Shown in pieces: positions 1 to 16,970 of a DNA stretch of 64,000 nt. Numbering within the stretch: position 1 is the first letter of the stretch; each line of letters opens with the position of its first letter. The position numbers and the translations under genes were made by a program. The stretch is from Candidatus Merdiplasma excrementigallinarum (GTDB lineage Bacteria > Bacillota > Clostridia > Lachnospirales > Lachnospiraceae), in NCBI GenBank assembly GCA_018713435.1, contig DVOS01000057.1, positions 2,450 through 66,449 on the forward strand. The letters run 5' to 3'. A model generated the notes under the pieces. That model worked only from the letters and a program-made list of their open reading frames with translations. It did no database searches and was not told the origin of the DNA.

Positions 1-231
1 ATCCACAATGGCAAAATCATCGTTCAGCAGCATATTTCCCGCTCCGCCGTCTGTATTTACCAGCACAGTATCCCCGATCCCCGCATCCGCGCAGTCGAAA
101 GCAATCATACGGGGGCCCTGGGGGACGCCGCTTTCCGGGTCAAAATATTCTACCAGCATCAGCTTGTAGCCATAATATCCCCTCTCTTTTACTGTGGAAA
201 CCACATTGCCTACTACTCTCGCCAGCCGCAT
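1..231 (-). CDS. BMC vertex (pentamer) shell protein, EutN/CcmL/PduN family; partial, C-terminus runs off the window edge
   Basis: Not in the ORF track. My own translation from the ATG at 231 gives MRLARVVGNVVSTVKERGYYGYKLMLVEYFDPESGVPQGPRMIAFDCADAGIGDTVLVNTDGGAGNMLLNDDFAIVD, 77 codons open to position 1. The MxxARVVGxVVST start is typical of EutN/CcmL. AGGAGG lies about 9 nt upstream. Confidence 0.8.
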   Translation of the reverse strand, partial: MRLARVVGNVVSTVKERGYYGYKLMLVEYFDPESGVPQGPRMIAFDCADAGIGDTVLVNTDGGAGNMLLNDDFAIVD

Positions 232-254
232 CCTCCGTCACCTCCTGTCTGCTG

Positions 255-521
255 TTACAGTTCTTCGTGGTAAGTATCAATAAATCCCACAATCGCCACA
301 TCCACCGGAATCCGTTTTACCCTGAAAATGCGGGCGGCCTCCTTGGAACCGATCATGTAGACAAAATCCCCCATTCCTGCCTGGCGGGTCTGGTCTGCCG
401 CAACGATAAGTCCGGCTTCCTTTCCATTCTCCATTTTGCGCACCACCAGCAGAGGAATTCCCTCCAGAGCCGAATCCTTTACCGTAGCCACCACAGATCC
501 GGCTACCACACCGGTGTACAT
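255..521 (-). CDS. BMC vertex (pentamer) shell protein, EutN/CcmL family (second paralog)
   Basis: 88 aa. MYTGVVAGSVVATVKD start, EutN-like length and pattern. Only 3 nt from the upstream BMC-H gene. Confidence 0.88.
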   Translation of the reverse strand: MYTGVVAGSVVATVKDSALEGIPLLVVRKMENGKEAGLIVAADQTRQAGMGDFVYMIGSKEAARIFRVKRIPVDVAIVGFIDTYHEEL

Positions 522-524
522 GGT

Positions 525-815
525 TTACTCCTCTTCTTTGCGGTCCAGGGTGGGCAAAATATACTCTACATCCGCATGGGGACGGGGAATCACATGAACT
601 CCGTAGAGTTCCCCTACCCGTTTTGCAGCTGCAGCGCCTGCGTCCACTGCGGACTTTACAGCGCCCACATCGCCCCGCACCATCACAGTCACCAGTCCGG
701 AACCAATCTGCACTTTGCCGATCAGGCTTACATTAGCCGCCTTTACCATGGCATCCGCTGCCTCAATAGAACCGATCAGTCCACGTGTTTCAATCATTCC
801 CAATGCTTCTTTCAT
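525..815 (-). CDS. BMC-H hexameric shell protein (PduA/EutM/PduJ-like, single Pfam00936-type domain)
   Basis: 96 aa. Canonical [31 protein letters not shown]...[13 protein letters not shown]...HVIPRPH. Confidence 0.93.
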
Positions 816-869
816 GTTTTGAATCCTCCATTATTTTTCTTTTTCATATATTAAAACTTGCATAACTGC

Positions 870-1415
870 CTATCCGATAGCCCGCAGCATATCCGGGTGA
901 GGGGAGGGAATCACAGCGCTTTTGGCCATCAGTCCCTTTGTCTCCTCCAGCGCTTCCGCCGCCTGGATGGAGGACTGTACAGCCGCTACTTCTCCAGTCA
1001 GCAGGATAAAGGATTTTCCTCCCAGTCCCCGGCCAAGCCGCACCTCCAAAAGCGTTACCTCCGCCGCCTTCGCCGCCGCGTCCGCTCCATGGACAGCGGC
1101 GCACAGAGAATAGGTTTCCATAATGCCCAGGGCATTCAGGTGTTCCACCATGGTACAGGCGGAAATGGCAGGCGCTACCTGCGGATCCACATTGGGGATC
1201 ACCAGACTGTCGATCAGCAGGCTTCCCGCCGCTTCTCTGCCCGCCTCCACAGACGCCTGGACAGCCGCCACTTCCCCGGATACCACAATGTAGTATTTCC
1301 CGGCGCAGATGCAGCCGGCACTGATAAGTTCTACCTCCGCCGCCTTCAGCATGGCGTCGCAGGCCAGCATTCCCGTGGGAATGCTCATAATTTCATTCAT
1401 TCCAATGGCTCCCAT
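870..1415 (-). CDS. BMC-T tandem-domain shell protein, PduT-like (candidate Fe-S pore)
   Basis: 181 aa with two BMC-like repeats (GMNEIMSIPTGMLACDAMLKAA... and GIMETYSLCAAVHGADAAAKAA...). The CICAGKYY segment aligns, from memory, with PduT TICPGKF, which carries the cluster-ligating Cys. Confidence 0.82.
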   Translation of the reverse strand: MGAIGMNEIMSIPTGMLACDAMLKAAEVELISAGCICAGKYYIVVSGEVAAVQASVEAGREAAGSLLIDSLVIPNVDPQVAPAISACTMVEHLNALGIMETYSLCAAVHGADAAAKAAEVTLLEVRLGRGLGGKSFILLTGEVAAVQSSIQAAEALEETKGLMAKSAVIPSPHPDMLRAIG

Positions 1416-1419
1416 GGCT

Positions 1420-2718
1420 TCACCTCCTTATCTCTATGTAGTCTTCGGTCACCGCCGTCACGGTACCGTCTATGGAAGCATGAATGTTGGCTCCCAATCC
1501 ATCCGGCCGGGCAATCAATTCTTCTCTGCGCACCCGGTCTCCCGGTGATACCAGAGGAATGTCCGGCGCGCCGATGTGCATTTTCAGCGGGATGCGCACC
1601 TCATCGCTGTCCACATATCCGCCCAGAGGCGCCTCCCTGTCAAAACGTTTCAGATCCAGCCGCCACAGCAGGCGCTCTGTGGGAATCCGTTTATTGGCCA
1701 TGCCGCCATCCGGCGGATATTTTACCTCTTTCACCGGTTTTATGCCTGCGGCAGCCAGACTGTTTTTCATCTGCTGCATGGCCATCGAGGGCTTCAGGCC
1801 AAAGCTGCAGGCAAAGTAAGTACAAATCCCGCAGTCACAGCAGGAAAAAATTCCATTTACGTCCCCCAGCAGTTCCCGGCTGCCGGAGGCAAAAGCTCTC
1901 ATAGCCCTGTGAGGCTGTACATTCAGGCCCATGGCATTCCTGGGGCACATCTGGGTACACAGCGAGCACTGGGAGCACACCGCTCTGGCGATCATGGCAT
2001 CCCTGGAAGAAGCTTTCTTTTTGGCCAGCAGCATATGGTCCTTCGGGATTGCCAGCAGCCCTCCTGTTGTCTTTGTCACCGGCTGCTTAAGATCCTCCGT
2101 TACTTTTCCCATAAGGGGGCCGCCCACAATATATACGCAGTCCCCCACAGAACCGCCGGCAGCATCCAGCAGTCTGGCAAGGGGCGTTCCCACCGGACAG
2201 GTCACCGTCACCGGCGCGGTCACGCTGCCGGATACTGTCACCATCTTATCCGTCACCGGATGGCCCTCCACAGCCCGGGCTATGTTCAGCACCGTACTGA
2301 CATTGCAGACCACGCAGCCCACGTCCAGAGGAATCCCTCCCGTGGGAACAGTCCGTCCGGTTACGCTAAACACCAGGTTCTGCTCGTCTCCGGCCGGATA
2401 AAAAGACTCCGAGAGGTAAAGCTCTACTTTTGTTCCTTTTACCGCCTTCTCCAGAGCCGATACAGCCGCTTCATAATGTTTCTTCAGGGCAATCACAGCC
2501 CGGGACGCTCCCAGCGCGTCCCGGATGCTGCGGACGGTCCGTACAATTTCATCCCCGTACTGTTCCATCACATGCCGGTCTGTGCGAAGCAGCGGTTCAC
2601 ACTCAATACCGTTAATGATTAAAATTTCTGCTTTGCAGTTTAATTTTCGGTCGGTTGGAAATCCGGCGCCGCCTGCACCCACAACGCCGGCATCCCGAAT
2701 CTGTTCGATCAGTCTCAT
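1420..2718 (-). CDS. PduS-like / RnfC-NuoF-like Fe-S flavoprotein oxidoreductase of BMC loci
   Basis: 432 aa. GVVGAGGAGFPT nucleotide-binding motif. Two ferredoxin-type Cys clusters (CSQCSLCTQMCP and CCDCGICTYFAC). C-terminal barrel-sandwich-like segment. Sits between the aldehyde dehydrogenase and PduT-like genes. Confidence 0.8.
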   Translation of the reverse strand: MRLIEQIRDAGVVGAGGAGFPTDRKLNCKAEILIINGIECEPLLRTDRHVMEQYGDEIVRTVRSIRDALGASRAVIALKKHYEAAVSALEKAVKGTKVELYLSESFYPAGDEQNLVFSVTGRTVPTGGIPLDVGCVVCNVSTVLNIARAVEGHPVTDKMVTVSGSVTAPVTVTCPVGTPLARLLDAAGGSVGDCVYIVGGPLMGKVTEDLKQPVTKTTGGLLAIPKDHMLLAKKKASSRDAMIARAVCSQCSLCTQMCPRNAMGLNVQPHRAMRAFASGSRELLGDVNGIFSCCDCGICTYFACSFGLKPSMAMQQMKNSLAAAGIKPVKEVKYPPDGGMANKRIPTERLLWRLDLKRFDREAPLGGYVDSDEVRIPLKMHIGAPDIPLVSPGDRVRREELIARPDGLGANIHASIDGTVTAVTEDYIEIRR

Positions 2719-2723
2719 AGGCT

Positions 2724-4130
2724 TTAAATAATCCGGAAGCCGTCAGCCAGGACGCATCGGCGGGCTCTGGTAAAACTCCGGGCCGAGGTAAGTCCCTCGC
2801 CTGTGGGTGTGGCGATGGTCAGCGTAGCGTATCCTTCTCCCTGGAATCCCACCCCGGCGGTAGAGGGGGCGTTTTTCACAAAGATAGTGGTGTTCAAAGC
2901 TCTGGCCGCTTTTGTCATGCTCAGATAATTGGTGGAATGCATCAGAGCGGAATGCCAGCATCCATGCTCTGCCTCCACTGCCCATTCTATGGCCTGATCC
3001 ACATGTTCGCACCGCACGCACCCCAGCACCGGCATCAGCATCTCTACCGTTACAAAGGGATGATTTTTGCATACCTCCGCTATCACCAGCCTGGGTTTTC
3101 CCGAATAGGACACCCCTGCCGCATCCATGATATAAGTGGCGTCATGGCCCACAAATTTCCGGTTAATCACATATTTTCCGTCTTTTTGCAGCAGAACGGT
3201 GCGGACTATCTTCTTGGCGTCCTCCTCATTGACCAGCCACGCGCCGTTTTTCTGCATCTCGGCAAGGAGCCTGTCAAAGACCGTGTTTACGCAGAAACAT
3301 TCCTTTTCTGCCACGCAGAGCACGTTGTTGTCAAAGGAGGCCCCGTCCACAATATCTTTTCCGGCCTTCGGAATATCCGCTGTCTCATCCACAATCACCG
3401 GCGGATTCCCCGGCCCCGCGGCGATACATTTCTTTCCTGTCTTCATCGCCACACTTACCACGGCTTCTCCGCCTGTCACACTCAGCAGCTTTACCTTCGG
3501 ATGGTTCATAATAACCGCGCTGGTATCCAGGCTGGGGTTTGCCGGACAGCAGATCAGCCCCATGGGGCCTCCTGCCGCCGCAATCGCCTCATTTAAAATC
3601 CGCATGGCTTCCTGGGAACATTTTACCGCTGCCGGATGGGGATTAAATACCACCGCGTTTCCGGCGGCGATCATGCTGATCGAATTGTTGATCACCGTTC
3701 CCGGCGGGTTGGTAGAGGGCGTGATGGAACCGATTACCCCAAAAGGCGCCTGTTCCACCAGCGTCATTCCCTTATCGCCTGTAAATACCCGGGGTACAAT
3801 ATCTTCCGTACCCGGTGTCTTATTTGCCACCAGCAGAATTTTCGCGATTTTATCCGGCACATTTCCGTATCCGGTCTCCTCATGGGCCATCTGGGCCAGT
3901 TTCTTCGCATTGTCCCTGGCTGCCTGACGCATGGCAGCGATCAGGCTTTCCCTCTGCTCCATGGTCATGGCCACCAGCTTTTTCTGCGCTTTTTGGGCTG
4001 CCTCAATACAGTCCTCCGCCCGCTCAAACATCCAGCCGTTTCCCCCGGCCTGATTCTCCGCCGGGCAGTTTTTGTTCAGCTGTGCCAGCGTCATCTGGAC
4101 AATCTGTTCAATCTGCTCTTTTGAAAGCAT
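2724..4130 (-). CDS. CoA-acylating aldehyde dehydrogenase (PduP/EutE family) with N-terminal encapsulation-type helix
   Basis: 468 aa. Catalytic-Cys context FDNNVLCVAEKE. N-terminal amphipathic SKEQIEQIVQMTLAQL followed by a linker, as in PduP/EutE targeting peptides. Confidence 0.9.
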   Translation of the reverse strand: MLSKEQIEQIVQMTLAQLNKNCPAENQAGGNGWMFERAEDCIEAAQKAQKKLVAMTMEQRESLIAAMRQAARDNAKKLAQMAHEETGYGNVPDKIAKILLVANKTPGTEDIVPRVFTGDKGMTLVEQAPFGVIGSITPSTNPPGTVINNSISMIAAGNAVVFNPHPAAVKCSQEAMRILNEAIAAAGGPMGLICCPANPSLDTSAVIMNHPKVKLLSVTGGEAVVSVAMKTGKKCIAAGPGNPPVIVDETADIPKAGKDIVDGASFDNNVLCVAEKECFCVNTVFDRLLAEMQKNGAWLVNEEDAKKIVRTVLLQKDGKYVINRKFVGHDATYIMDAAGVSYSGKPRLVIAEVCKNHPFVTVEMLMPVLGCVRCEHVDQAIEWAVEAEHGCWHSALMHSTNYLSMTKAARALNTTIFVKNAPSTAGVGFQGEGYATLTIATPTGEGLTSARSFTRARRCVLADGFRII

Positions 4131-4447
4131 CAGTCTATCACCTTCTTACTGTCTTTTTCTTTGCTGAATATCCGTCTGTTATGCAGGTCAATATAATCAA
4201 TAATGGCAATAATGGCTGTATCCGACGGTTTATTTTCTGTTACCTCTGTCTGTCTCGAGGAAGAACCGGAGACAATCATCACCACCTCGCCCTCACCTGC
4301 TCCTACCGCGTCAAAAGCTACCAGTATATTGCCTTTTTCCTCGAATGTCTCCAGATCAATCGGCTTTACCAGCATCATTTTCAGCCCGGTCAGTTTCTCA
4401 GATTTGGTGGTACTGACCACCGTTCCCACTACCCGCGCGATCTGCAT
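4130..4447 (-). CDS. BMC vertex (pentamer) shell protein, EutN/CcmL family (third paralog, with a short basic C-terminal tail)
   Basis: 105 aa. MQIARVVGTVVSTTKSEKL start. Overlaps the pduL 3' end by 19 nt and abuts the aldehyde dehydrogenase start. Confidence 0.9.
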   Translation of the reverse strand: MQIARVVGTVVSTTKSEKLTGLKMMLVKPIDLETFEEKGNILVAFDAVGAGEGEVVMIVSGSSSRQTEVTENKPSDTAIIAIIDYIDLHNRRIFSKEKDSKKVID

Positions 4448-5532
4448 GTCTCTCCTCCTTCTGTCCGGACGATCCGAATGCCGCTGGCCGCCGCCCGCTC
4501 TCTGGCCGCTTCCGTGACCAGAGCCCGGCTGCTTCCAAACACCGTTTCCCGGTTGTCCCGGTACGCGTCATTAATATCCCGCTCTGTAATCAGATCCAGC
4601 ACGGTTTCTCCCGGGTTCGGCAGGGCCTCCGGCCGTTTCTTTTTTCCCGGGGTCCGCTCAATCCGAATGCCCAGCTCACCGGCCCGGTCCCTGGCCAGAG
4701 GCGTAATCAGCGCCTCTTTTTCACAAAACAGTTTCTTTCTGCGGCCCAGGAACGCCTCGTTCACTTCCCTCTCCGTTACCAGCTCCCATACCGGCTCTTC
4801 TTCCCGCTCCTCTGCCGTACAGGAACCTTCATTCCCTGTTTCTTCGGCCTGCTTCGGCTTTTCTGCCCGGGACGGGGCAGCGCCGGACACGCCCGGCCCG
4901 TCAGGCAGCACTTCCAGCAGCTGCTCGTTGGACAGGCAGCATCCGTTGGCCTCATCTGTGTCTATATGAAATTCCAGTTCATGTTTTTCCCCGGTCCTGC
5001 ATACCACATCATTTAAAATACAGGGCCTTGGTCCGTCTACTTTCAGACTGATAATCTGTCCGTCATGGATTCCGTAGGCCATAGCCTGCTCCCTGCTCAG
5101 GTGCAGATGGCGCCGGGCCACTATTACGCCGTGATCCAGGTCGATCTGCCCCCGGGGGCCAATCACCCTGATTCCCGGCGTCCCGGCCGTATCTCCCGAC
5201 ATTCGTACCGGGCAGTTTCGGATACCCAGCGCGAAGGAATCGGTCAGGGAAATTTCCACCTGGGTTTCAGCTCTTACCGGTCCGATAATTCTGACCTTCT
5301 CAATTCTTCCTCTCGGGCCTTCCAGAATCAGCTGTTCTTTTGTAGCGAACTGTCCCGGCTGCACCAGCTTTTTCAAAGGCGTCAGTTCATAGCCGGGTCC
5401 GAACAGAATCTCCAGATCTCTGGCACACAGATGCAGATGCCGGGCCGAGATAGCCGCCGGCACATACCGGATACCGGAGCGGGCCAGTTGGGTCAGCACA
5501 ATACGCCGCACTTTTTTTTCATCAGCTGCCAA
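4429..5532 (-). CDS. pduL: Phosphate acyltransferase PduL with an approx 160-aa C-terminal extension carrying two tandem modules
   Basis: 367 aa. The two PduL half-domains each have an RHLHL motif (ISARHLHL, VARRHLHL). N-terminal amphipathic KKVRRIVLTQLARS. The extension is described in findings. Confidence 0.9.
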   Translation of the reverse strand: MAADEKKVRRIVLTQLARSGIRYVPAAISARHLHLCARDLEILFGPGYELTPLKKLVQPGQFATKEQLILEGPRGRIEKVRIIGPVRAETQVEISLTDSFALGIRNCPVRMSGDTAGTPGIRVIGPRGQIDLDHGVIVARRHLHLSREQAMAYGIHDGQIISLKVDGPRPCILNDVVCRTGEKHELEFHIDTDEANGCCLSNEQLLEVLPDGPGVSGAAPSRAEKPKQAEETGNEGSCTAEEREEEPVWELVTEREVNEAFLGRRKKLFCEKEALITPLARDRAGELGIRIERTPGKKKRPEALPNPGETVLDLITERDINDAYRDNRETVFGSSRALVTEAARERAAASGIRIVRTEGGETCRSRG

Positions 5533-5563
5533 ACACCTTCCACCCTCTTCCTATGCATTTTTC

Positions 5564-6439
5564 TTATATTCCCCGTGAGGCAAGCACCCGGCGGACAATC
5601 TCTGTGATCATCTGCACTTCCTCTTCCTCACTCATACTGCTATCTGCCTGACTGCCGGAAGATGCGCAGGAATTCCTGCATTTTGCTTCCCCGTTTGCGT
5701 TTTTCCCACAGGACGCGCAGGCCTCCGTTCCTTCCTGTCCGCAGTCTCTGCACTGGGGCCGTCCTCCGGTGGTAATGCCGTCCCTGGTTCTCCGCTCGAT
5801 CAGTCTGTCCACCTGATCGCAGGTCAGCTCCTGCACCTGCCCGATCAGTCCGTGGGTATACATACTCACCAGTGCATAATATTCAATAGATTCCATGCGC
5901 ATCCAGGCTGTCATGGCATCCCCTGCCCATGCAAGGGCGCCATGGTTGGCCAGCAGGCAGCCATTATGGGTTTTCACAAAAGGCGCAACGGAATCCGGTA
6001 CCTCTTCTGTTCCCGGCATGGCATAAGGCGCCAGCGGAATTTCCCCGATGCCCATTACGGATTCTGTGAGAATCGCCCGGTTCAGCGGCAGCCCGGCAAT
6101 GGCGTAGGATGTGGCTGCAGGCGGATGGGCATGAACCACTGCCTTTATGGCCGGGTTTTCTTTATATACACGCAGGTGCATTTTCATCTCGCTGGATGGC
6201 TTGCAGGTGCCCCGGATCACATTTCCGTTCGTGTCCATAAGCACCAGCATCTCGTCTGTCATAAAGCCTTTGGACACTCCGGTAGGCGTGCACCACAGCG
6301 TATGGTCGCTGACCTTGCAGCTGATATTTCCGTCGTTGGATGCCACAAAATTTTTCGCGTACATCCGTCGTCCGATTTCAAGGATCAGCTGCTTTGCCTC
6401 AAAATCAGACGGATAATCCTGGTTTAATCTATAATCCAT
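5564..6439 (-). CDS. Class II (metal-dependent) aldolase/adducin-family enzyme (FucA/RhaD/Ald2/DrdA-like) with Cys-rich linker and C-terminal encapsulation-type helix
   Basis: 291 aa. Metal ligands conserved in the expected places (SSEMKMH, VVHAHP, LANHG). C-terminal EEEEVQMITEIVRRVLASRGI amphipathic helix. First gene of the BMC operon. Confidence 0.88.
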   Translation of the reverse strand: MDYRLNQDYPSDFEAKQLILEIGRRMYAKNFVASNDGNISCKVSDHTLWCTPTGVSKGFMTDEMLVLMDTNGNVIRGTCKPSSEMKMHLRVYKENPAIKAVVHAHPPAATSYAIAGLPLNRAILTESVMGIGEIPLAPYAMPGTEEVPDSVAPFVKTHNGCLLANHGALAWAGDAMTAWMRMESIEYYALVSMYTHGLIGQVQELTCDQVDRLIERRTRDGITTGGRPQCRDCGQEGTEACASCGKNANGEAKCRNSCASSGSQADSSMSEEEEVQMITEIVRRVLASRGI

Positions 6440-6585
6440 TCTTTTACACCTTTCCCGCGGCGCTTTCTTTTGGCATTTTTATACAACTGGAGCCGCATTT
6501 ATTCACAAGGTATCATTTATTTTTCTTCCCAGATGTGTTATACTGTGCACAGAAGGCTGAATATTATGAAAGGAGAGCTATTCGT

Positions 6586-7338
6586 ATGCTAGCCATTGCA
6601 AGAAAACAGGCGATTCGGGAACAGCTGCAGGAATATAAGAGCGTGCGGATCACAGAACTTGCCGCCGCGCTCAACGTCACAAAGGAAACGATCCGACGGG
6701 ACCTGCGGGATATGGAACAGGCGGGAGAGCTTATCCGAACACATGGAGGCGCCTACATTCTGGACGGCGTTCAGAATGACATTGATATTACCACCCGGCA
6801 GGTTCTGAAAATGCCTGAAAAAGAAATTATCGCTCAAAAATGCGACAGTCTGATTCAATCCGGTGATTACATCTTTCTGGATTGGTCCACTACCGCCTGG
6901 ACAATCGCCCGGACAATCGCTCACCGCAGGCTCACAGTGCTGACTCCCTCACTGAAAATTGCCAACATTCTCTCAACTTCTGATACCGTCCGCCTCTTTG
7001 TGGTAGGAGGCGAATATTCCGCTTCCTCTCAGAGCTTCACCGGCAACAGTGCCGCCCGGAATATGGAACAGTATTTTGTAGACAAGGCCATTATCTCCTG
7101 CCGCAGCGTCAACATGGAATTCGGCATTACAGATACCAATGACAATGACGCCACTCTTCATCGCCTGGCGCTGGAACACGCTCAGGAGAAATATCTGGCC
7201 ATCGATTATTCAAAGCTGGACAAAACTTCTTTTTCCCGGGTTGCTCCTGTCTCTGACCTGAACGGCATTATCATGGATCGAAGCTTCTCTCTCCCCTGGA
7301 TCAAATTTCTGGGAAGTAATCAGGTACATATTTATTAA
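6586..7338 (+). CDS. DeoR-family transcriptional regulator (HTH plus sugar-phosphate-binding C-terminal domain)
   Basis: The start is trimmed from the track ORF 6340..7338 to the ATG at 6586, preceded by AGGAGAG. MLAIARKQAIREQLQEYKSVRITELAAALNVTKETIRRDL is a typical DeoR HTH. Divergent from the aldolase gene. Confidence 0.9.
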   Translation: MLAIARKQAIREQLQEYKSVRITELAAALNVTKETIRRDLRDMEQAGELIRTHGGAYILDGVQNDIDITTRQVLKMPEKEIIAQKCDSLIQSGDYIFLDWSTTAWTIARTIAHRRLTVLTPSLKIANILSTSDTVRLFVVGGEYSASSQSFTGNSAARNMEQYFVDKAIISCRSVNMEFGITDTNDNDATLHRLALEHAQEKYLAIDYSKLDKTSFSRVAPVSDLNGIIMDRSFSLPWIKFLGSNQVHIY

Positions 7339-7341
7339 TGG

Positions 7342-9837: not shown

Positions 9838-9866
9838 ATTCTAACCGGATTTCCCGTCAATGTCAA
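9838..9866 (-). promoter_or_regulatory. Candidate sigma-70-type promoter of the mtnK-mtnA-like operon
   Basis: On the minus strand: TTGACA, a 17-nt spacer, then TAGAAT. Located about 55 nt upstream of the start codon. Confidence 0.5.
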
Positions 9867-9905
9867 TAAAAAAACTAACAAAATACCACAAAATCAAAAA
9901 TAATC

Positions 9906-9950
9906 AAAAAAACGCAAGAGAGGCACTGCCAAACGCGCAGCACCCCTCTT
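9906..9950 (-). terminator. Rho-independent terminator after the ABC permease gene
   Basis: Minus-strand RNA AAGAGGGGUGCUGC / GCAGUGCCUCUCUU forms a 14-bp stem (three G-U pairs), followed by GCGUUUUUUU. Confidence 0.55.
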
Positions 9951-9984
9951 TAAGTTCCGTCTCGTCTTCACGGAACCGGTTGTT

Positions 9985-11016
9985 TTAATCCTCTTTGCTG
10001 GTAATGTATGCAGCAATCAAAGCCAGGCAGAGTACCGCGCCCTTAACCGCAGGCAGAATATAGTATACAACGCCGCACATGGTCATGCCGTTTTCCAGCA
10101 CGGCAATCAGCAAAGCACCGATAGCCGTTCCAAGAGCATTGTATTTTTCTCGTCCGCCCACGCTTCGGCCGATAAATACGGCTGCCAGAGAACTCATCAG
10201 ATAACTGTCAGACCCGTTGATCTGAGCAGCCGAGTTTCTGGAACACACCACGATACCGCCCACAGCGATAAACAGAGCCGCAAACATACCTGCCATAAAG
10301 CGCATTTTCTTCACGTCGATTCCGGAAAGTCTTGCCGCCATCTTGTTGCCGCCCATAGCATACAGATAGCGCCCGTATTTGGTCCGTTCCAGAAGGATAA
10401 AGCAGAGCACTACGCACAGCAGCATGATGATAATAATATAAGGCGATTTTCCGATGTTCTGAGATGCCTCTGTCCAGCCGGAGCGCAGAGGAGAACTGTC
10501 CCCGCCCTTCAGCGCGGTTGCCCAGCCGGGCGTGCTCATGCCTGCGGATACGGCGCTGCCGCCTGTAAACGCAAGTCCCAGTCCCTGATGCACAAACTGC
10601 AGCGCGCAGGTGGCCAGCATATCCGGCACCTTGCATACCAGAATCAGGAACATGTTCAGCAGATACATCACCATAGCGAATACAATGGTAATCACGATAG
10701 AAAGCCACAGAGGCATGGCAAACCAGAGGAAGCAGGACGCAAACACATAGGCACAGAATGATCCCAGCGTACCGGCCGCCATATCAAAACCGTCCGGCGC
10801 CATGGACACGGTTGCCGCCAGGGCAAAAATCGTCATGGTAGACATGGCCCGGAAAATATTAATCAGGTTCGCCACGGAAAAGAAGGCGCTGCCGCGCAGA
10901 ATGGTAAAGATGATGACCGAAACGATCAGAACGATGACCGCAGCCCAGTCCACAAACAGCTTTCCCGCCTTCCTTAAAGAAGTAGAATTTTGCATTTGTT
11001 TATTCCTCCCTGTCAT
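9985..11016 (-). CDS. Sugar ABC transporter permease (RbsC/AraH-type)
   Basis: 343 aa, multi-pass hydrophobic protein. Follows a two-cassette ATPase and a binding protein. Confidence 0.85.
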   Translation of the reverse strand: MTGRNKQMQNSTSLRKAGKLFVDWAAVIVLIVSVIIFTILRGSAFFSVANLINIFRAMSTMTIFALAATVSMAPDGFDMAAGTLGSFCAYVFASCFLWFAMPLWLSIVITIVFAMVMYLLNMFLILVCKVPDMLATCALQFVHQGLGLAFTGGSAVSAGMSTPGWATALKGGDSSPLRSGWTEASQNIGKSPYIIIIMLLCVVLCFILLERTKYGRYLYAMGGNKMAARLSGIDVKKMRFMAGMFAALFIAVGGIVVCSRNSAAQINGSDSYLMSSLAAVFIGRSVGGREKYNALGTAIGALLIAVLENGMTMCGVVYYILPAVKGAVLCLALIAAYITSKED

Positions 11017-11038
11017 ATGGATTTTTCAAATTTGGAAA

Positions 11039-12574
11039 TCATGCCTGGCTGCCCACCTGGCTGGCGCCGGTGGCATAGTGCATAATTTCCGTCTCGTTCG
11101 TCTTGGCTGTTTCCAGCTCGGCCATCACTTTGCCGTCAAACATGACATACATCCGGTCTGTGATAGACAGCAGCTCCGAATTTTCGCAGGTGGCATAGAT
11201 TACACAGTTTCCGGCCTTGGCAATCTCATTGATCAAATGGAAAATTTCCTGTTTCGCGCCCACATCCACACCCTTGGTCGGTTCGTCAAATATGTATACG
11301 TCGCAGTCCGCTGCCAGCCATTTTCCCACCGCAACCTTCTGCTGATTTCCTCCGGAAAGATAGGCCACCTTCTGCCGGATGGAAGGAGTCTTGATGCTCA
11401 GGCTCTCCACAAACTTCTGGGCGTTTTTGTCTGCCGATCTTGTATTTACAAAAATCAGATTGCAGAAACGGCTCAGGGAAGCGGCTGCCAGATTAAAGGA
11501 AACGGTCTCGCCCACCAGCACGCCTTCTTTACGCCGTTCTTCCGGAACCAGCGCAATCCGGTTTTTCACCGCATCGGCAGGTTTTTTAATTACGAGTTCT
11601 TTCCCGTTTAGCGTAATCTTTCCCGAAGACTTTTTATAAGCCCCGAATATGGTCTTGCACAGTTCCGTCTTGCCGCCTCCTACCAGGCCCGCAAGCCCTA
11701 CAATCTCTCCCCGGCGCACATAAAGGCTTACATCCTTCACCCTGCCTTCCCGTTCGGTAAGGTGCTCCACCACAAAACTTTTCTCCCCGATCTCACACAC
11801 TTCCTTGGGGAAGTTCTCCTCAAAGGAGCGGCCCAGCATCTTATCCACAATCTCTTTGGATGTAGTCTGAGGCGTAATGGGAGTGGTATCTACAATCTGC
11901 CCGCCCCGCATAACCGTATAGCTGTCGCAGATACGCAGCACTTCATGAATGCGGTGCGTAATGAATATAATAGCCATGTTCTGGGTATCCCGCAGATGAT
12001 TCACCACACGGAACAGCTCTTCCGTTTCTGTATCGGAAAGGGGCGCCGTAGGTTCGTCTAAAATCAGAAAATTACAGGTATTCTGAATCGCTCTGGCGAT
12101 CAGCACCATCTGCTTCTGGGCCAGAGACAGGGAACTGCAGATCCGTTTCACATCAATATCCACATTCAGCTGTTTCAGCACCTCTTTCGCCTCATTTCGC
12201 AGCTTTCCGTAGTTCATGAACAGCTTTCCCTTCATATTCATAACCGTATCATTAAACATTACATTCTCAGCCACGGTAAGATTGGGGATCAGCGCGGTAT
12301 CCACCTCCTGATACACGATCTGGATACCCAGCTTTTTAGCTGCCACAGGCGTCCGTATCTCCACAGGCTGTCCATTATACAGTACATCGCCGGTATATCC
12401 GGGATTTGCTCCCGAAAGGACTTTCATCAGGGTGGATTTTCCTGCGCCGTTAGCTCCCATCACCGCGTGAATCATTCCGGTCTGAATCTCAAAGTCCACA
12501 TTTGAAAGCGCTTTGACTCCGGGAAATTCAATGGAAACATTTTTTGTCCCCAGCGTAATCTTTTCTTTCTCCAT
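11039..12574 (-). CDS. Sugar ABC transporter ATP-binding protein, duplicated cassette (RbsA/MglA-type)
   Basis: Walker A GANGAGKST and a second GLVGGGKTE. Start chosen at MEKEKITL (ATG 12574); the track alternative is 12616. Confidence 0.88.
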   Translation of the reverse strand: MEKEKITLGTKNVSIEFPGVKALSNVDFEIQTGMIHAVMGANGAGKSTLMKVLSGANPGYTGDVLYNGQPVEIRTPVAAKKLGIQIVYQEVDTALIPNLTVAENVMFNDTVMNMKGKLFMNYGKLRNEAKEVLKQLNVDIDVKRICSSLSLAQKQMVLIARAIQNTCNFLILDEPTAPLSDTETEELFRVVNHLRDTQNMAIIFITHRIHEVLRICDSYTVMRGGQIVDTTPITPQTTSKEIVDKMLGRSFEENFPKEVCEIGEKSFVVEHLTEREGRVKDVSLYVRRGEIVGLAGLVGGGKTELCKTIFGAYKKSSGKITLNGKELVIKKPADAVKNRIALVPEERRKEGVLVGETVSFNLAAASLSRFCNLIFVNTRSADKNAQKFVESLSIKTPSIRQKVAYLSGGNQQKVAVGKWLAADCDVYIFDEPTKGVDVGAKQEIFHLINEIAKAGNCVIYATCENSELLSITDRMYVMFDGKVMAELETAKTNETEIMHYATGASQVGSQA

Positions 12575-12724
12575 AGTTTCCTCTTTTCTTCCTTCCTCCT
12601 CCGAAGCCTCCGGCAATTTACCTGAAAGGGCCTCATACCTGAAAGGAAGGGCGTTAAAGCCTCAACTCCAACGCCCTCTCTTTATTATTTCGTTTTACGA
12701 AATCAGATTTCTGATGTCAGTGGA

Positions 12725-13894
12725 TTAGTGTCCCAGCAGTTCAACCATCCAGTCGCAGGTGGGCATCCAGGAAACGTCGGAGTAGCTCTCATCAGCAACC
12801 TCTTCCAGGTTCTCGATGGTGATGCCTTCCTGTGAAGTTACCTGCTCCTGTGTTACGATAGTGGAAGGAATCTCCAGCCAGTCGCCGATTTCCTCATAGT
12901 AACAGGAAGCTGCTGCAATATCTTCATACTGATCGGCCAGTTCAAGAGCAAGGATACGGCATGCGAATTCGCCGTTGGAAGTCCAGTTTGTGGTAGCGCA
13001 GGCTTTCCACTGAGAACCTTCCTCCTGCATGAACTGAATATCTTCATTACAGATATCAACAGATACCATGGGGATGTCGCGTCCGCCTTCGCTCAGCGCC
13101 TGGTATACGCCCTGGGCATAAGCATCGTAGCAGCACCAGATACCGTCGATCTCATCGTCAGAATACTTCGCCAGTGTAGCGGTTGTCACATCACGCATGG
13201 ATGAAGTAGCGTTCTGGTCATCCGTAGGAGCGATACGCTCAACTGTCACAATGGAACCATCCTCTTCATAAGGAGCATATCCGGTCTGACGGCGGTCAAA
13301 GGGGCTGTTATATCCGGTACCCTGCTGCACCTGAAGGATGTTCAGAGGCTCGCCGGCTTCAACTTTTTCCGCGTTCTCCGGCAGGGACATCAGATACTCT
13401 ACCAGATCTGCCGCAAATCCCGCATCCTGCTGGAAGAACTGGGTCACGCCCTCAATCTTGGCTGTTTCACCGTTCTGATCCTTAAACGGGGTATCAAATG
13501 TAACAATCTTCAGATCCGGGTACTGCGCCAGAATGTCGCTCAGGAAGCTCCAGGCGTATTCCTGTCCGCCGTGGGAAACCATCAGTCCGTCATATCCCGC
13601 GGCCGCGCATGTGGCGATCCGGTTCTGCCACTCCTCCGCATTGTCATTGCAGAAGAAAGTGTCTGCGGTCATGCCCAGTTTTTCAGCTGTCGCTGTAAAG
13701 GAGTCGGACCACATATTAAAGATGGTGGCCGGGCTCATGAACATGATGTAGGCAACCTTTTTGCCTGCTACCGGGGATTCTACTGTAGCCTCAGCAGCCG
13801 CTTCCGTCGTCTCTTCTGCCGTGACAGCCATAGATCCCAGGCTCAGTGTCATCACAGCCGCCAGTGTCATTGCCAGTATCTTTCTCAGTTTCAT
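12725..13894 (-). CDS. Extracellular sugar-binding protein of the ABC importer (type I periplasmic-binding fold), secreted
   Basis: 389 aa. Signal-peptide-like MKLRKILAMTLAAVMTLSLGSMAVTA. First gene of the importer unit. Confidence 0.8.
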   Translation of the reverse strand: MKLRKILAMTLAAVMTLSLGSMAVTAEETTEAAAEATVESPVAGKKVAYIMFMSPATIFNMWSDSFTATAEKLGMTADTFFCNDNAEEWQNRIATCAAAGYDGLMVSHGGQEYAWSFLSDILAQYPDLKIVTFDTPFKDQNGETAKIEGVTQFFQQDAGFAADLVEYLMSLPENAEKVEAGEPLNILQVQQGTGYNSPFDRRQTGYAPYEEDGSIVTVERIAPTDDQNATSSMRDVTTATLAKYSDDEIDGIWCCYDAYAQGVYQALSEGGRDIPMVSVDICNEDIQFMQEEGSQWKACATTNWTSNGEFACRILALELADQYEDIAAASCYYEEIGDWLEIPSTIVTQEQVTSQEGITIENLEEVADESYSDVSWMPTCDWMVELLGH

Positions 13895-13946
13895 ACCAAA
13901 ACCTCCTTATATATTTTTGCTAAATTTCATTAGCTTTTATGGAAAT

Positions 13947-13975
13947 AATCTAACATATTTTCCATATTTTGTAAA
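13947..13975 (-). promoter_or_regulatory. Candidate promoter of the sugar importer unit, with overlapping short direct repeats
   Basis: On the minus strand: TTTACA, a 17-nt spacer, then TAGATT. CATATTT (plus strand) occurs three times at about 13954, 13963 and 13976. Confidence 0.4.
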
Positions 13976-14086
13976 CATATTTTTTTGTTTTTTTGACTTT
14001 ATTTCTTTTTACGAGAATTTTACGCAATTATTTTTTTGCATTTTCAACATTTCAGCAAATGTCCTCTGCATTTTTTGCATTTTTGA

Positions 14087-14743
14087 CTATTTTCCACATA
14101 TATAGTCCGCCATGCCCTGTATCTTGTAACAGCCGGCCACTGCGCCCTGATCTGCCACTCCTTTGCACTTCTGGGCGTGAACTGCCGCTTTTCCAAATAC
14201 AGGCACCATATCTTTTGTCGCTTCCACCCCTGCCTGTGCAGCCTTCAGGGCGGCGCTGATCACCTGTTCAAGAGATGCCTGCCCGTCTGCCGCTTCTTTT
14301 GCGGCCCGGGCCGCCGGCAATATGGAATCATAAATGGTTCTCTGTCCTTCCTGGCATTTTCCTCTTTTCTGAATACCGGCCGCGAAACCGTTCAGATAGT
14401 CCGCCAGGGCATTGCCATCCATCTGCTGTTTTCCCTTCAGCGCTTTTCCGCCCTCCATCACTCCTGTGGACATAAGGAAACCCATGGTAGACGGAACCAG
14501 AGAGGACATTTTCATGCCGGCCTTCATCATCATTTTTCCGATATCGCCGTCCGCCGCCGGCGCCTCCTGCCGCATCAGGTCCGGCAGAGCCGCGTATCCT
14601 TTGCTCATGGTCAGCCCCAGGTCTCCGTCTCCCAGCATGGCGTCCATCTCACACAATTCTTCTTTTTTCTGGACAAACAGACGCCCCACGGCATCAAACA
14701 GATCCGGTATCTGTTCAAATAAAATCACTTCCATATCATTCAT
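14087..14743 (-). CDS. dhaL: Dihydroxyacetone-kinase family, nucleotide-binding subunit (DhaL/Dak2 domain)
   Basis: 218 aa. DAMLGDGDLGLTMSKG motif. Confidence 0.85.
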   Translation of the reverse strand: MNDMEVILFEQIPDLFDAVGRLFVQKKEELCEMDAMLGDGDLGLTMSKGYAALPDLMRQEAPAADGDIGKMMMKAGMKMSSLVPSTMGFLMSTGVMEGGKALKGKQQMDGNALADYLNGFAAGIQKRGKCQEGQRTIYDSILPAARAAKEAADGQASLEQVISAALKAAQAGVEATKDMVPVFGKAAVHAQKCKGVADQGAVAGCYKIQGMADYICGK

Positions 14744-14752
14744 CCCCCATTT

Positions 14753-15745
14753 TTATTTCTGGCAGATAAAAGGAGTGCATACCGGATAATCCAGATACCC
14801 CTTCATCTCATCGTTCATTTTGCAGACAGATATGGAAGCTCCCGCCATCTCCATGGAGGTAGCGTACTCTCCCACAATCATCTTATAAATGGAAATGCCT
14901 TTTCCCTTCAGTATTTCCGTCACATCGTTGGATAGAATGTAAAGCTCTTCCTGGGACGTGGCTCCCAGCCCGTTAATCAGCAAAGCCACCTCTTCTCCCG
15001 GCGCCACAGGCATATCTTTCAGAATCGTATCCAGGGATTCTTCCGCAATCTCCCGGGACGTTTTCAGCGGACCGTTCCATACGCCCGGCTCGCCGTGAAT
15101 GCCCATTCCCATAGCCATCTCATCCTCCTTCAGTTCAAAGTTGGGATGTCCCACTTCAGGAATTACACAGGGAGTCAGAGCGAAGCCCACTGTACGGGTA
15201 TTGTCTTTAGCCAGCTGCGCCGCTGCCAGAACTTCATCCAGGCTGCCGCCCTGATCCGCTCTGGCGCCTGCCGCCTTGTACATAAAATAGATACCGGCAA
15301 CGCCCCGGCGGGTGGCGGGATCCGGGTGAGAGTTTACATCATCCGCCCCCACAATGCTTTTGCACTCGATATCGTCCATCTCGCACAGGTCTGTGGCCAT
15401 ATCAAAGGTCATAATATCTCCTGTATAATTTCCGTAAAGATACAGGATTCCGGCCCCTGCTTCCACCTCTTTGGAGATCTCATAAATCTGCTCCGGCGAC
15501 GGGGACTGAAATACGCCTCCCACACCGCAGCCGTCGATAAGGCCGTCTCCTACATAGCCCAGAAACAGAGGCAGATGCCCTGTGCCGCCGCCTGTGATAA
15601 TCGCTACTTTACCCGGCTTCTTTTCTTTTCTGCAGTAGCAGCGCAGATCTCCCGCCGCGTATTTCACCTGATCGCCGTGGGCGGCATAGATGCCCTTAAG
15701 CATCTCATCCACATAGTTTTCCGGTGCATTCATAATTTTCTTCAT
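14753..15745 (-). CDS. dhaK: Dihydroxyacetone-kinase family, substrate-binding subunit (DhaK/Dak1 domain)
   Basis: 330 aa. ITGGGTGHLPLFLGYVG (a GHLP variant of the GHEP motif I recall) and a GMGIHGEPG segment. Confidence 0.85.
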   Translation of the reverse strand: MKKIMNAPENYVDEMLKGIYAAHGDQVKYAAGDLRCYCRKEKKPGKVAIITGGGTGHLPLFLGYVGDGLIDGCGVGGVFQSPSPEQIYEISKEVEAGAGILYLYGNYTGDIMTFDMATDLCEMDDIECKSIVGADDVNSHPDPATRRGVAGIYFMYKAAGARADQGGSLDEVLAAAQLAKDNTRTVGFALTPCVIPEVGHPNFELKEDEMAMGMGIHGEPGVWNGPLKTSREIAEESLDTILKDMPVAPGEEVALLINGLGATSQEELYILSNDVTEILKGKGISIYKMIVGEYATSMEMAGASISVCKMNDEMKGYLDYPVCTPFICQK

Positions 15746-15803
15746 GGTACATTCCTCCTAAATATATATTTTTATTTAATCCCATTTCAGAGCAGACCGA
15801 AAA

Positions 15804-16331
15804 TCATCCTTTCCCGTCTGCCATCCCGGCCGCCCGCTTCCCGGGCAGATAGACCGACAGCAGCAGCGCAGCCACCCAGAGCAGCATAACGGCGTCATTG
15901 GGCGTACTTCCCAGGTACAGGGTGGCATCAATATAGAAAAAGCAGACTGCCGTTTCCAGCTCCAGGAGAAGTGTCAGAAGCTTTAAAAGCGTCCCTTCTG
16001 ATTTCTTCATCCCGTTTCTCACTTTTACCGGCAGCCTCCACATCTCCAGGGGAAGGAACCGGCAGGCCAGCCTGAAACCCAGCGTCAGGATCCAGCAGAT
16101 CAGCGGGAAAACCAGAAAAAGAAGGCTGGCATCCCCCCACAGGCCTTCCTGCCCCGCCTGTCCATACCGGTTCTTAACCGCCCATATTCCAAAAGCTGTC
16201 ATAGCGGTCTGCAGCAGAAGGGATACGGCGGATACTATTCTGTTTGTCTTAGTAGCCGGTATCCGATGCAGCTCCCCTTTCTTTTGGGGCGCATGAAACA
16301 GCTTTTTCTTCCTTCGCGTCTTATTTGACAT
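15804..16331 (-). CDS. Hypothetical integral membrane protein (about four hydrophobic segments)
   Basis: 175 aa. Basic N-terminus, then hydrophobic helices. No family recognised. Heads the dhaK-dhaL unit. Confidence 0.5.
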   Translation of the reverse strand: MSNKTRRKKKLFHAPQKKGELHRIPATKTNRIVSAVSLLLQTAMTAFGIWAVKNRYGQAGQEGLWGDASLLFLVFPLICWILTLGFRLACRFLPLEMWRLPVKVRNGMKKSEGTLLKLLTLLLELETAVCFFYIDATLYLGSTPNDAVMLLWVAALLLSVYLPGKRAAGMADGKG

Positions 16332-16511
16332 ATCATTGCCTCTTTTTTGGTATTTTTACTTCTTTTTTGTGTATTTATCACAACTTACGCCACTAGTCTA
16401 CCATGATACCGAAAAAAATACAACAAAAAATAACATTGTAATCTCTTGATTTTTCTTTTTTTGTGTAGTACAGTCAAAACAGGAATTATATGAAAGGAGA
16501 GGATACGAAAG

Positions 16512-16970
16512 ATGTTAAAAGGGATTCCTCCCGTACTCTCGCCAGAACTTTTGAAAGTACTGGCCGAGATGGGACACGGTGATACGATTGTGATCGGAGA
16601 TGCCAATTTTGCGGCGGCTTCTATGGCCAAGGACAGCATTCTGATACGCTGCGACGGCGTGCGGGCCACAGAAATCATGGACGCGATTCTTACCCTGATG
16701 CCCCTTGATGACTTTGTGGACGACCCGGTTCTGCTGATGGACAAAGATGCCCGGCACGCAGACCTGGAATGCCCTGTATGGGACGAGTTTAAAGCCATTG
16801 TAGCCCGGCACGACGAGAGAGGCGCTGCCGCCTGTGCCATGATTCCCCGGGGTAAATTCTATACCATGGCCAAGGCCGCCTATGCGGTGGTGGCGACTAC
16901 GGAAACTGCGTTCTACGCCTGCGCCATTCTGCAGAAAGGGGCTGTCGCGCCGGCAGATCCGATACGTTAA
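16512..16970 (+). CDS. fucU: RbsD/FucU-family sugar mutarotase (L-fucose mutarotase-like)
   Basis: 152 aa. MLKGIPPVLSPELLKVLAEMGHGDTIVIGDANF closely matches the E. coli FucU N-terminus as I recall it. Confidence 0.85.
   Translation: MLKGIPPVLSPELLKVLAEMGHGDTIVIGDANFAAASMAKDSILIRCDGVRATEIMDAILTLMPLDDFVDDPVLLMDKDARHADLECPVWDEFKAIVARHDERGAAACAMIPRGKFYTMAKAAYAVVATTETAFYACAILQKGAVAPADPIR

Follow-up and report, generated by a model that had tools for sequence, protein, structure and literature searches.

5-Deoxy-D-ribose and 5-methylthio-D-ribose are the sugar parts of 5'-deoxyadenosine and methylthioadenosine, by-products of S-adenosylmethionine (SAM). A trio of kinase, isomerase and aldolase converts 5-deoxyribose to dihydroxyacetone phosphate (DHAP) and acetaldehyde, and some of the described trio clusters are accompanied by sugar transporters, one of them by a FucU homologue (PMC6079011). 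E. coli grows on the sugars through this DHAP shunt under the control of a DeoR-type repressor, and is unable to ferment 5-deoxyribose for reasons of redox and ATP (PMC10986504, PMC12632272).

Aldolases are also found in bacterial microcompartments (BMCs). The MIC4 class has been described as containing AldDh, PTAC, a pfam00596 aldolase, a BMC-P triplet, PduS with a pore-cysteine BMC-T of the PduT type, and sometimes a single BMC-H (Sutter et al. 2021). The PVM-like class of Clostridia and Bacilli has an aldolase, a GRM5-like AldDh, PTAC and BMC-P, without PduS (Sutter et al. 2021), and its loci carry neither PduS nor an alcohol dehydrogenase (ADH) recycling system (PMC11626177). For both the PVM-like and the MIC aldolase microcompartments, the catalogues presume fucose/rhamnose-like substrates (PMC8156839, PMC8217296). 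One proposal is that PduS and a BMC-T partner recycle NADH to NAD+ in loci that have no alcohol dehydrogenase; the BMC-T(SE) motif is CP(G/S)K, and the metabolosome NADH dehydrogenase (MNdh) adjoins BMC-T in 97% of MNdh loci (PMC11626177).

Here we describe a locus in a 64-kb stretch of DNA from Candidatus Merdiplasma excrementigallinarum (Lachnospiraceae; contig DVOS01000057.1), hereafter called the window, in which a metabolosome operon led by a helix-tagged class II aldolase lies beside the genes of MtnK- and MtnA-type enzymes and of an ABC importer. As far as our literature search shows, this combination of a known metabolosome architecture with a known pathway was previously undescribed. 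Neither the searched catalogue texts nor the PVM-like and MIC4 supplements (Sutter 2021, Axen 2014) mention MtnK or MtnA (PF01636, PF01008). An earlier model reading of the window, made from the letters without database searches (the sequence-only reading), knew of no characterized BMC of such wiring; in agreement, the searchable literature links no microcompartment to the DHAP shunt, with North et al. 2020 lying outside the search.

Genetic coupling of an aldolase metabolosome to MtnK and MtnA genes

The genes of the window were identified by open reading frame (ORF) listing and by Pfam and NCBIfam scans. The shell operon is transcribed from the minus strand in the order aldolase, PduL, BMC-P, CoA-acylating aldehyde dehydrogenase (AldDH), PduS, BMC-T, BMC-H, BMC-P and a third BMC-P (Table 1). 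The sequence-only reading had proposed a minus-strand BMC operon with a helix-tagged aldolase, PduL, AldDH, PduS and five shell genes, and all are present as placed. On the other side of a divergent DeoR gene lie the genes for an MtnA-type isomerase and an MtnK-type kinase. The B. subtilis enzymes MtnA (2yrf) and MtnK (2olc) gave 314 bits and 249 bits with their window counterparts, and the stretches GDGNLN, HGDLH and DPEF are found in the window MtnK. Compared with the E. coli shunt enzymes, the window MtnK is 34% and MtnA 40% identical.

To follow this arrangement across genomes, 30 aldolase homologues were aligned, and with this alignment 80 genome loci were retrieved, each with 10-kb flanks, and compared with all window proteins (locus and contig handles carry the prefix L). 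The neighbour-joining tree of the aldolases from the 80 loci has two clades, both distant from E. coli FucA and Ald2. Clade II comprises the window aldolase and 65 loci: MtnA is found within 10 kb in 57 of the 65, MtnK in 31 and shell genes in 30, and shell genes occur together with both MtnK and MtnA in 22. Clade I aldolases, about 44% identical to the window enzyme, are accompanied by a B12 diol dehydratase or a glycyl-radical enzyme, Zn-ADH and shell genes, and none of them has MtnA in the 10-kb flanks. Clade I loci are of the fucose/rhamnose type.

Within clade II, the order binding protein-ATPase-permease-MtnK-MtnA-(DeoR)-aldolase-shell is common to Lachnospiraceae, Hungatella, Lacrimispora, Clostridium and Acetivibrio, and also in Bacillus, Cytobacillus, Paenibacillus, Gracilibacillus and Treponema. 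Six loci (L017, L022, L032, L033, L039 and L043) have MtnK, MtnA and PduL as a contiguous same-strand run in which no gap exceeds about 110 bp, and more metabolosome genes follow PduL where the contig extends. Because this synteny is conserved over dozens of genomes, chance is excluded. Thus, the class II aldolase is genetically coupled to the kinase and the isomerase, as shown by MtnA in 57/65 loci and by the six contiguous loci. Co-conservation of the aldolase microcompartment with MtnK, MtnA and the ABC genes, on which the sequence-only reading had staked its case, is borne out by the same two counts and by the 22/65 loci that hold shell and both enzymes, and is sometimes co-operonic. Taken together, these results make it highly probable that the shell-enclosed aldolase is functionally wired to the MtnK/MtnA-type enzymes and a dedicated importer.

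The C-terminal helix of the aldolase, EEEVQMITEIVRRVLASRGI (about nucleotides 5567-5632), is amphipathic and of the encapsulation type. In the homologue alignment, the helix is kept as I-x-E-I-V-R-x-V-L and the linker sequence is not kept; E84, H103, H105 and H166, the metal and catalytic residues, do not vary. The helix also tracks the shell: shell-linked aldolases have 260-334 aa and carry it, and the aldolases of shell-free MtnA-aldolase pairs have 225-255 aa and lack it. No phosphorylase is adjacent to these shell-free pairs.

The linker that joins the aldolase core to the targeting helix (window 5633-5750, minus strand) is rich in cysteine, with the pattern GGRPxCRxCxxxGxxxC...C; conservation of its first cysteine reaches at least 90% in shell-linked aldolase homologues. 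The linker could be a metal or redox site.

The shell operon and the catalogued microcompartment classes

One BMC-H, one BMC-T and three BMC-P genes are clustered in the operon, as expected for a metabolosome shell. AldDH and PduL, which make up the metabolosome core, have N-terminal amphipathic stretches of the encapsulation type and are predicted to be targeted to the shell. The top solved relative of AldDH is 4c3s (440 bits), which we take to be the AldDH of the C. phytofermentans fucose/rhamnose (GRM5) microcompartment. The PduS-like protein has Nuo51 FMN, 4Fe-4S and RnfC_N domains, and its gene adjoins that of BMC-T, in which the pore cysteines lie in the sequence G-C-I-C-A-G-K, similar to the CP(G/S)K motif of BMC-T(SE) (PMC11626177). 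With PduS beside a pore-cysteine BMC-T and alcohol dehydrogenase absent, the operon matches the NAD+ regeneration scheme of the same work (PMC11626177).

The window edge cuts the operon within the third BMC-P gene, and we extended the locus leftward with same-species contigs. Four gut metagenome contigs (L084, L086, L087 and L089) of the six with this architecture are 98.9-99.7% identical to the window over 10.8 kb, and another metagenome contig, L096, is identical to the window. A full-length third BMC-P of 96 aa (PF03319) is present in the same-species contigs L084-L089, and the shell operon ends there with this gene followed by one for a 172-aa protein. In the 10 kb to the left of the window in the same-species contigs there is no glycyl-radical enzyme, alcohol dehydrogenase or additional shell gene, an outcome that favours the sequence-only reading, which had asked for this extension.

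The 172-aa protein (L084:10908-12114, left of window position 1) is conserved, being found in L001 and L094 as well, and has no Pfam or NCBIfam family. Beyond its gene follow a terminator-like hairpin, a flavodoxin gene and then pyruvate:ferredoxin oxidoreductase; the flavodoxin is a conceivable external electron acceptor for PduS/BMC-T.

Two shell lineages are found among the coupled loci. The window-type lineage has PduS, the pore-cysteine BMC-T, three BMC-P and one BMC-H, and the Hungatella/Bacillales-type lineage has several BMC-H, one BMC-P and no PduS. Judged by gene content from the published descriptions, the window locus fits MIC4, although the description of MIC4 includes an acetate kinase and the window locus has none. 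By the same descriptions, the Hungatella/Bacillales sister loci fit the PVM-like class, and the window, with PduS/BMC-T and three BMC-P, does not.

The PVM-like sister loci (L004-L016, L024, L026, L037, L038 and L062) add a CoA-disulfide reductase (PRK09564, 584 bits, above cutoff), a two-subunit CoA-transferase and, inside the shell operon, a signal-less SBP_bac_1 binding-protein homologue. Often they also have a lactaldehyde-reductase-like Fe-ADH (446 bits, below cutoff).

With the PVM and GRM5 systems the window locus shares a class II aldolase with a C-terminal helix as signature enzyme, which in the window is likewise predicted to take a ketose-1-phosphate and give DHAP, as well as the AldDH and PduL core and the DeoR regulator; the BMC-P triplet of PVM is also in the window. 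However, the feeding enzymes in the window are MtnK and MtnA instead of FucI/FucK or RhaA/RhaB, the locus has neither a glycyl-radical or B12 diol dehydratase nor a lactaldehyde reductase, and the aldolases form sister clades. The Pfam scan covered part of the ORFs in the rest of the 64 kb. Among the scanned ORFs, no FucI/FucK, RhaA/RhaB, MtnB/W/X/D, glycyl-radical enzyme or diol dehydratase was found. The genes diagnostic of GRM5 or PVM (FucI/FucK, RhaA/RhaB, or diol dehydratase with lactaldehyde reductase) are absent from the scanned ORFs and from the 10 kb to the left, and the set of canonical methionine salvage (MtnB, MtnW/MtnX or MtnC, MtnD) is absent from the scanned window ORFs. These absences from the scanned ORFs and the separate aldolase clade accord with the sequence-only reading, which had noted that other methionine-salvage genes, FucI/FucK and RhaA/RhaB were lacking, and they set the locus apart from the GRM5 and PVM loci for fucose/rhamnose.

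The SPU microcompartments also cut a deoxy-sugar phosphate inside the shell to a triose phosphate and acetaldehyde, which passes to AldDH (PMC11585597, PMC8217296). In SPU, however, a class I DERA converts 2-deoxyribose-5-phosphate to glyceraldehyde 3-phosphate (GAP), whereas the class II aldolase of the window would convert a ketose-1-phosphate to DHAP, and the feeding enzymes are not the same.

Proposed pathway and substrate

From the gene content, protein families, targeting-type helices, operon signals and conserved synteny, we infer a pathway in which the substrate, all enzyme activities, the actual encapsulation, the electron route and the regulation are predictions. The metabolosome would enclose the aldolase and the aldehyde-handling steps of a DHAP-shunt-type pathway. 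An exogenous furanose, most likely 5-deoxy-D-ribose and/or 5-methylthio-D-ribose, would first be bound by the binding protein and then taken up through the ABC transporter, and the FucU-family mutarotase would equilibrate its anomers. The MtnK-type kinase would then phosphorylate C1, and the MtnA-type isomerase would produce the ketose-1-phosphate; both steps are placed in the cytosol because no targeting helix was seen at the MtnK N-terminus or the MtnA C-terminus. After passage through the shell, the ketose-1-phosphate would be cleaved by the helix-tagged aldolase to DHAP, which exits to glycolysis, and acetaldehyde or 2-methylthioacetaldehyde, which is trapped in the shell. The tagged AldDH would convert the aldehyde to acyl-CoA with formation of NADH, and PduL would regenerate CoA and release an acyl-phosphate for ATP synthesis outside the shell. 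Since no alcohol dehydrogenase is encoded, PduS/MNdh is expected to re-oxidize the NADH, with the electrons exported via the Fe-S BMC-T. DeoR may repress the operons until a phosphorylated intermediate builds up.

The enzyme trio is that of the DHAP shunt (DrdK-DrdI-DrdA of B. thuringiensis; MtnK-MtnA-Ald2 of extraintestinal pathogenic E. coli and of Rhodospirillum rubrum). The window system differs in that its aldolase is helix-tagged and encoded in a shell operon with AldDH, PduL and PduS, so that the aldehyde would originate inside the organelle and be conserved as an acyl-phosphate. It also differs in that a conserved DhaK/DhaL module is attached, and in that its enzymes are only 32-40% identical to those of E. 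coli, the aldolase belonging to a subclade other than that of DrdA or Ald2.

Concerning the substrate, the best solved relatives of the binding protein by sequence are 5ulb and 4ry8. They are also the best folds for its structural model (pLDDT 87), with E-values of 1e-24 and 3e-21, and the next furanose binders follow at 1e-16. The library name of 4ry8 is 5-methylthioribose transporter binding protein. Our best single hypothesis is that 5-deoxyribose and/or methylthioribose serve as the physiological sugars, and we hold it at about an even balance of belief and doubt.

We also put forward, somewhat more tentatively, that the locus represents an unrecognized class of organelle, a microcompartment for the use of 5-deoxypentoses with which Bacillota and Spirochaetes of gut and soil import the 5-deoxyribose or methylthioribose excreted by their neighbours. 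If this is true, cleavage would occur in the shell, with the aldehyde conserved as acyl-phosphate, and the PVM-like and MIC4-like classes would gain a function. It would further explain how strict anaerobes ferment a substrate that E. coli cannot, the block of redox and ATP being solved by oxidation of the aldehyde to acyl-phosphate and by electron export via PduS and BMC-T; a shell with AldDH, PduL and PduS is a plausible solution to the 5-deoxyribose fermentation problem for a strict anaerobe. The waste sugars of radical-SAM and polyamine metabolism would become a cross-fed source of carbon and energy in anaerobic communities, the RuBisCO-like protein of related loci (see below) and the DAK-family kinase would be linked to the pathway, and engineerable aldolase shells would have a wider range of sugar-phosphate feeds. 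For the PVM-like and MIC4-like classes, which occur in human-gut and soil bacteria and are provisionally regarded as fucose/rhamnose-like, the coupling provides a specific and cheaply testable hypothesis. Cultured carriers exist (Hungatella, Paenibacillus, Gracilibacillus and Calidifontibacillus), and loci of the Blautia schinkii type are a natural shell-free control. Even if the substrate differs, the modular view stands of one aldolase shell with interchangeable feeding modules.

Evidence for and against the proposed substrate

Several findings weigh against this proposal. Among solved or validated enzymes, the window aldolase scores 91 bits with 6voq, presumably a 3-oxo-tetronate-phosphate decarboxylase, 85 bits with S. 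pneumoniae FucA and 79 bits with B. thuringiensis DrdA (6btd). Judged by sequence, it is not orthologous to the validated DrdA or Ald2; the MtnK-family kinase and the MtnA-family isomerase of the shunt are present, and an orthologue of its aldolase is not. The binding protein is only 17% identical to 4ry8, no nucleosidase or phosphorylase is present in the window locus, and the functions assigned to the clade II proteins here are read from their sequences. In 29 metagenome loci around close relatives of MtnK, each with at least 6 kb downstream of MtnK, shell genes are absent from 19 and present in 9, and the constant core is (FucU)-ABC-MtnK-MtnA-DeoR-DhaK-DhaL. The co-conserved wiring described in the sequence-only reading stands, 5-deoxy or 5-thio pentoses are its favoured substrate, and the shell cassette itself proves optional. 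The identity of DhaK among relatives is 85-90% whether or not they have a microcompartment, compared with 71% for the aldolase and 75-80% for the binding protein. DhaK/DhaL is therefore the most conserved of the compared genes and persists without the shell, so that its earlier treatment as a bystander is abandoned, and it has no role where the products are DHAP and acetaldehyde. Its presence hints that the pathway has glyceraldehyde, dihydroxyacetone or a free ketose among its intermediates; the DAK-family kinase may phosphorylate glyceraldehyde as a triokinase, act as the 1-kinase of a free 5-deoxy-ketose, or work in salvage. One lineage (L105, L127, L130, L135 and L151) has a cluster of clade I aldolase, glycyl-radical enzyme and activase at a distance of about 5 kb from the core. 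Finally, L025 (5855-8278) has a xylose-isomerase-like TIM barrel and an FGGY kinase upstream, with no MtnK/MtnA. From this swap of the feeding module, the aldolase shell looks like an exchangeable cassette for ketose-1-phosphates in general.

The aldolase phylogeny was dropped as the decisive test of function. The window aldolase is about 32% identical both to E. coli Ald2 and to FucA, and about equidistant to 6voq, FucA and DrdA. The validated E. coli Ald2 matches E. coli FucA with 273 bits across the full length; the validated shunt aldolases are thus polyphyletic, and because Ald2 is so close to FucA the phylogeny is unable to decide function, which overturns the expectation of the sequence-only reading that the phylogeny of the enzymes would discriminate. 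No specificity residues of DrdA are stated in the main text of PMC6079011. Against the MtnB model, the window aldolase scored 86 bits (cutoff 137).

As the main rival explanation, the same wiring could serve another sugar, if the MtnK/MtnA paralogues act on a different ribo- or arabino-configured furanose and the shell traps the resulting aldehyde: lactaldehyde from a 6-deoxyhexose, glyceraldehyde from a hexofuranose or glycolaldehyde from ribose. We regard this as possible but rather unlikely. It would give DhaK/DhaL, with its high conservation and its persistence without the shell, a task in handling a triose or ketose by-product, together with transketolase where present, and a split transketolase does accompany DhaK/DhaL in L094, L115 and L122. 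Mammalian-type triokinases of the DAK family phosphorylate glyceraldehyde. A mutarotase of the FucU family, an aldolase clade that is sister to the fucose/rhamnose microcompartment aldolases, an AldDH nearest to 4c3s (taken to be the C. phytofermentans enzyme), the glycyl-radical enzyme, activase and aldolase cluster adjoining the locus in one lineage, the PVM-like sister loci with their frequent lactaldehyde-reductase-like Fe-ADH and CoA-transferases, and the different feeding module taken by the L025 shell all point the same way. On the other hand, MtnK and MtnA are well over their equivalog cutoffs, methylthioribose is the ligand of the nearest solved relative of the binding protein with an assigned ligand, methionine-salvage enolases are the closest match of the RuBisCO-like protein that goes with the system in relatives, and the window has no lactaldehyde reductase or diol dehydratase. 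We know of no precedent for an MtnK/MtnA-type route on hexoses or 6-deoxyhexoses.

Two further explanations fare worse. Sulfur salvage as the main role would have methylthioribose imported and converted to methylthioribulose-1-phosphate, with the methylthio group recovered for methionine and the shell confining 2-methylthioacetaldehyde or the product of the RuBisCO-like protein. Although the DHAP shunt serves sulfur salvage in R. rubrum and R. palustris (cited in PMC10986504), the RuBisCO-like protein occurs in most close relatives and the binding protein resembles a methylthioribose binder, we consider this role very unlikely: the window has no RuBisCO-like protein, the locus encodes no methanethiol-releasing or methionine-forming enzyme, AldDH would route the carbon skeleton to acyl-CoA and not to methylthioethanol, and an importer, PduL-based ATP conservation and an organelle would be costly for the salvage of trace sulfur. 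An ordinary fucose/rhamnose microcompartment of the PVM or GRM5 type that lies by chance beside unrelated methionine-salvage genes, in line with the substrates presumed by the catalogues (PMC8156839, PMC8217296) and with FucU and DeoR genes, which are typical of fucose loci, appears more improbable still. Such a locus should carry FucI/FucK, RhaA/RhaB, a glycyl-radical enzyme, a diol dehydratase or a lactaldehyde reductase, yet these are absent from the scanned window ORFs and the 10 kb to the left. Moreover, MtnK/MtnA adjacency is kept across phyla and includes the six contiguous one-strand loci, the fucose/rhamnose-type aldolases form a separate clade without MtnA, and no further methionine-salvage genes are present.

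Features of the window and of related loci

The coordinates of the locus are given in Table 1. Terminator and promoter scoring covered window 1-17200, and the top matches of both lie just upstream of mtnK, in line with the divergent DeoR and the separate mtnK-mtnA promoter put forward by the sequence-only reading. The importer, DhaK/DhaL and FucU named in that reading are likewise present; the FucU strand is corrected to plus, and a gene for a 175-aa membrane protein lies between DhaK and FucU.

Table 1. Coordinates of the features of the locus in the window (positions of the 64-kb stretch)
Feature	Position	Strand	Evidence or remark
Third BMC-P (EutN/CcmL) shell gene	1-231	-	77/96 aa, gene cut by window edge; read from sequence
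BMC-P shell protein, 88 aa	255-521	-	PF03319, 62 bits
BMC-H shell protein, 96 aa	525-815	-	PF00936, 100 bits
BMC-T tandem shell protein, PduT type	870-1415	-	two PF00936 (BMC) domains
PduS-like / MNdh homologue	1420-2718	-	PF01512, PF13534, PF13375, PF10531
CoA-acylating aldehyde dehydrogenase (AldDH)	2724-4130	-	PRK15398, 644 bits
BMC-P shell protein, 105 aa	4130-4447	-	PF03319, 101 bits
PduL phosphotransacylase, N-terminal targeting-type helix and C-terminal extension	4429-5532	-	PF06130, 235 bits
Class II aldolase, signature enzyme	5564-6439	-	PF00596, 163 bits
Divergent promoter region, aldolase operon / deoR	6440-6585	.	read from sequence
DeoR-family regulator, 250 aa	6586-7338	+	PF08220, PF00455
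MtnA-type aldose-1-phosphate isomerase	7411-8538	-	TIGR00512, 414 bits, cutoff 279
MtnK-type sugar 1-kinase	8564-9802	-	TIGR01767, 392 bits, cutoff 275
Sigma-70-type promoter-like site of mtnK-mtnA, TTGACA-17-TAGAAT	9866-9838	-	top promoter score
Terminator-like site after permease gene	9950-9916	-	top terminator score
ABC importer	9985-13894	-	ribose type; PF13407, PF00005 x2, PF02653
ABC permease	9985-11016	-	
ABC ATPase	11039-12616	-	
ABC binding protein	12725-13894	-	
DhaL	14087-14743	-	PF02734
DhaK	14753-15745	-	PF02733; with DhaL, two-subunit DAK-family kinase
Membrane protein, 175 aa, upstream of dhaK	15804-16331	-	unannotated
RbsD/FucU-family mutarotase	16512-16970	+	PF05025, 137 bits

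MtnK probably starts at 9781, because its relatives are called at 405 aa. DhaK, DhaL and FucU score under the NCBIfam equivalog cutoffs and are thus taken as family members of uncertain substrate; FucU gave 149 bits with the FucU of PDB 3mvk, and 97 bits with the L-fucose mutarotase equivalog (cutoff 141). FucU recurs in L003, L033, L039, L094, L095 and many metagenome loci. A minus-strand ORF at 16385-16840 has no family match and was rejected as the antisense of the plus-strand FucU gene. The 175-aa membrane protein has no Pfam match and is 50% identical to the product of a 185-aa gene at the same position in L094. The BMC-H protein of the window is listed, in identical form, in 805 blocks of the assembly collection.

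The DeoR gene, divergent from the aldolase, has the same position in more than 20 loci. The A-rich motif AAATGCCAAAA has one copy in the divergent promoter region and is also found upstream of the binding-protein gene. The motif AAATGCAAAAA, with one mismatch allowed, has 8 occurrences versus 1.9 expected, in regions that are A-rich throughout, with copies upstream of the aldolase and of the binding-protein gene. The sequence AAATGC[AC]AAAA lies at 6468-6478, upstream of the aldolase operon, and at 14033-14043 and 14072-14082, upstream of the binding-protein gene, with similar repeats at the corresponding places in L003; this sequence is a weak candidate for a DeoR operator.

The C-terminal extension of PduL (window 4447-4803; about 160 aa) contains two repeats of about 50 aa with a consensus like L-I-T-E-R-[DE]-[IV]-N-x-A ... 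A-R-[DE]-R-A-x-x-x-G-I-R-I, for which no match was found among Pfam or PDB. The repeats are kept in L001 and L002 (two copies each) and in L003 (one copy).

In most close relatives that have the microcompartment, the shell operon opens, directly ahead of the aldolase, with the gene for a RuBisCO-like protein (PF00016, KDDH motif), whose best NCBIfam match is an MtnW-type enolase (207 bits, cutoff 409). The gene is found in L003 (8832-9974) and L094 (13294-14448), and also in L099, L100, L102, L111, L115, L119 and L122, and has left no trace in the window. Our search found no literature that pairs RuBisCO-like proteins with metabolosomes.

In L094 (698-5006), L115 (1178-3080) and L122 (2653-5101), DhaK-DhaL share an operon with a small membrane protein and a split transketolase, and the operon is divergent from the FucU and ABC genes; of this operon the window retains only the membrane protein, DhaK and DhaL. 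In L130 (16309-20765), from a human-gut lineage, the core locus is shell-free, the aldolase of the nearby cluster is 41% identical to that of the window, and the cluster resembles the start of a GRM5-type locus. L006 (8880-9764) is, like L025, a shell locus with a clade II aldolase and without MtnK/MtnA; in L006, an inosine-uridine-type nucleoside hydrolase precedes the aldolase and the ABC system is a different one.

The other scanned ORFs of the window are housekeeping genes or unrelated to the pathway. The segment 42001-44000 is an island of low GC content (0.365 versus about 0.54), and within it the ORF at 42767-43612 matches the pyruvate kinase barrel only partially; a complete pyruvate kinase is encoded at 54174-55607.

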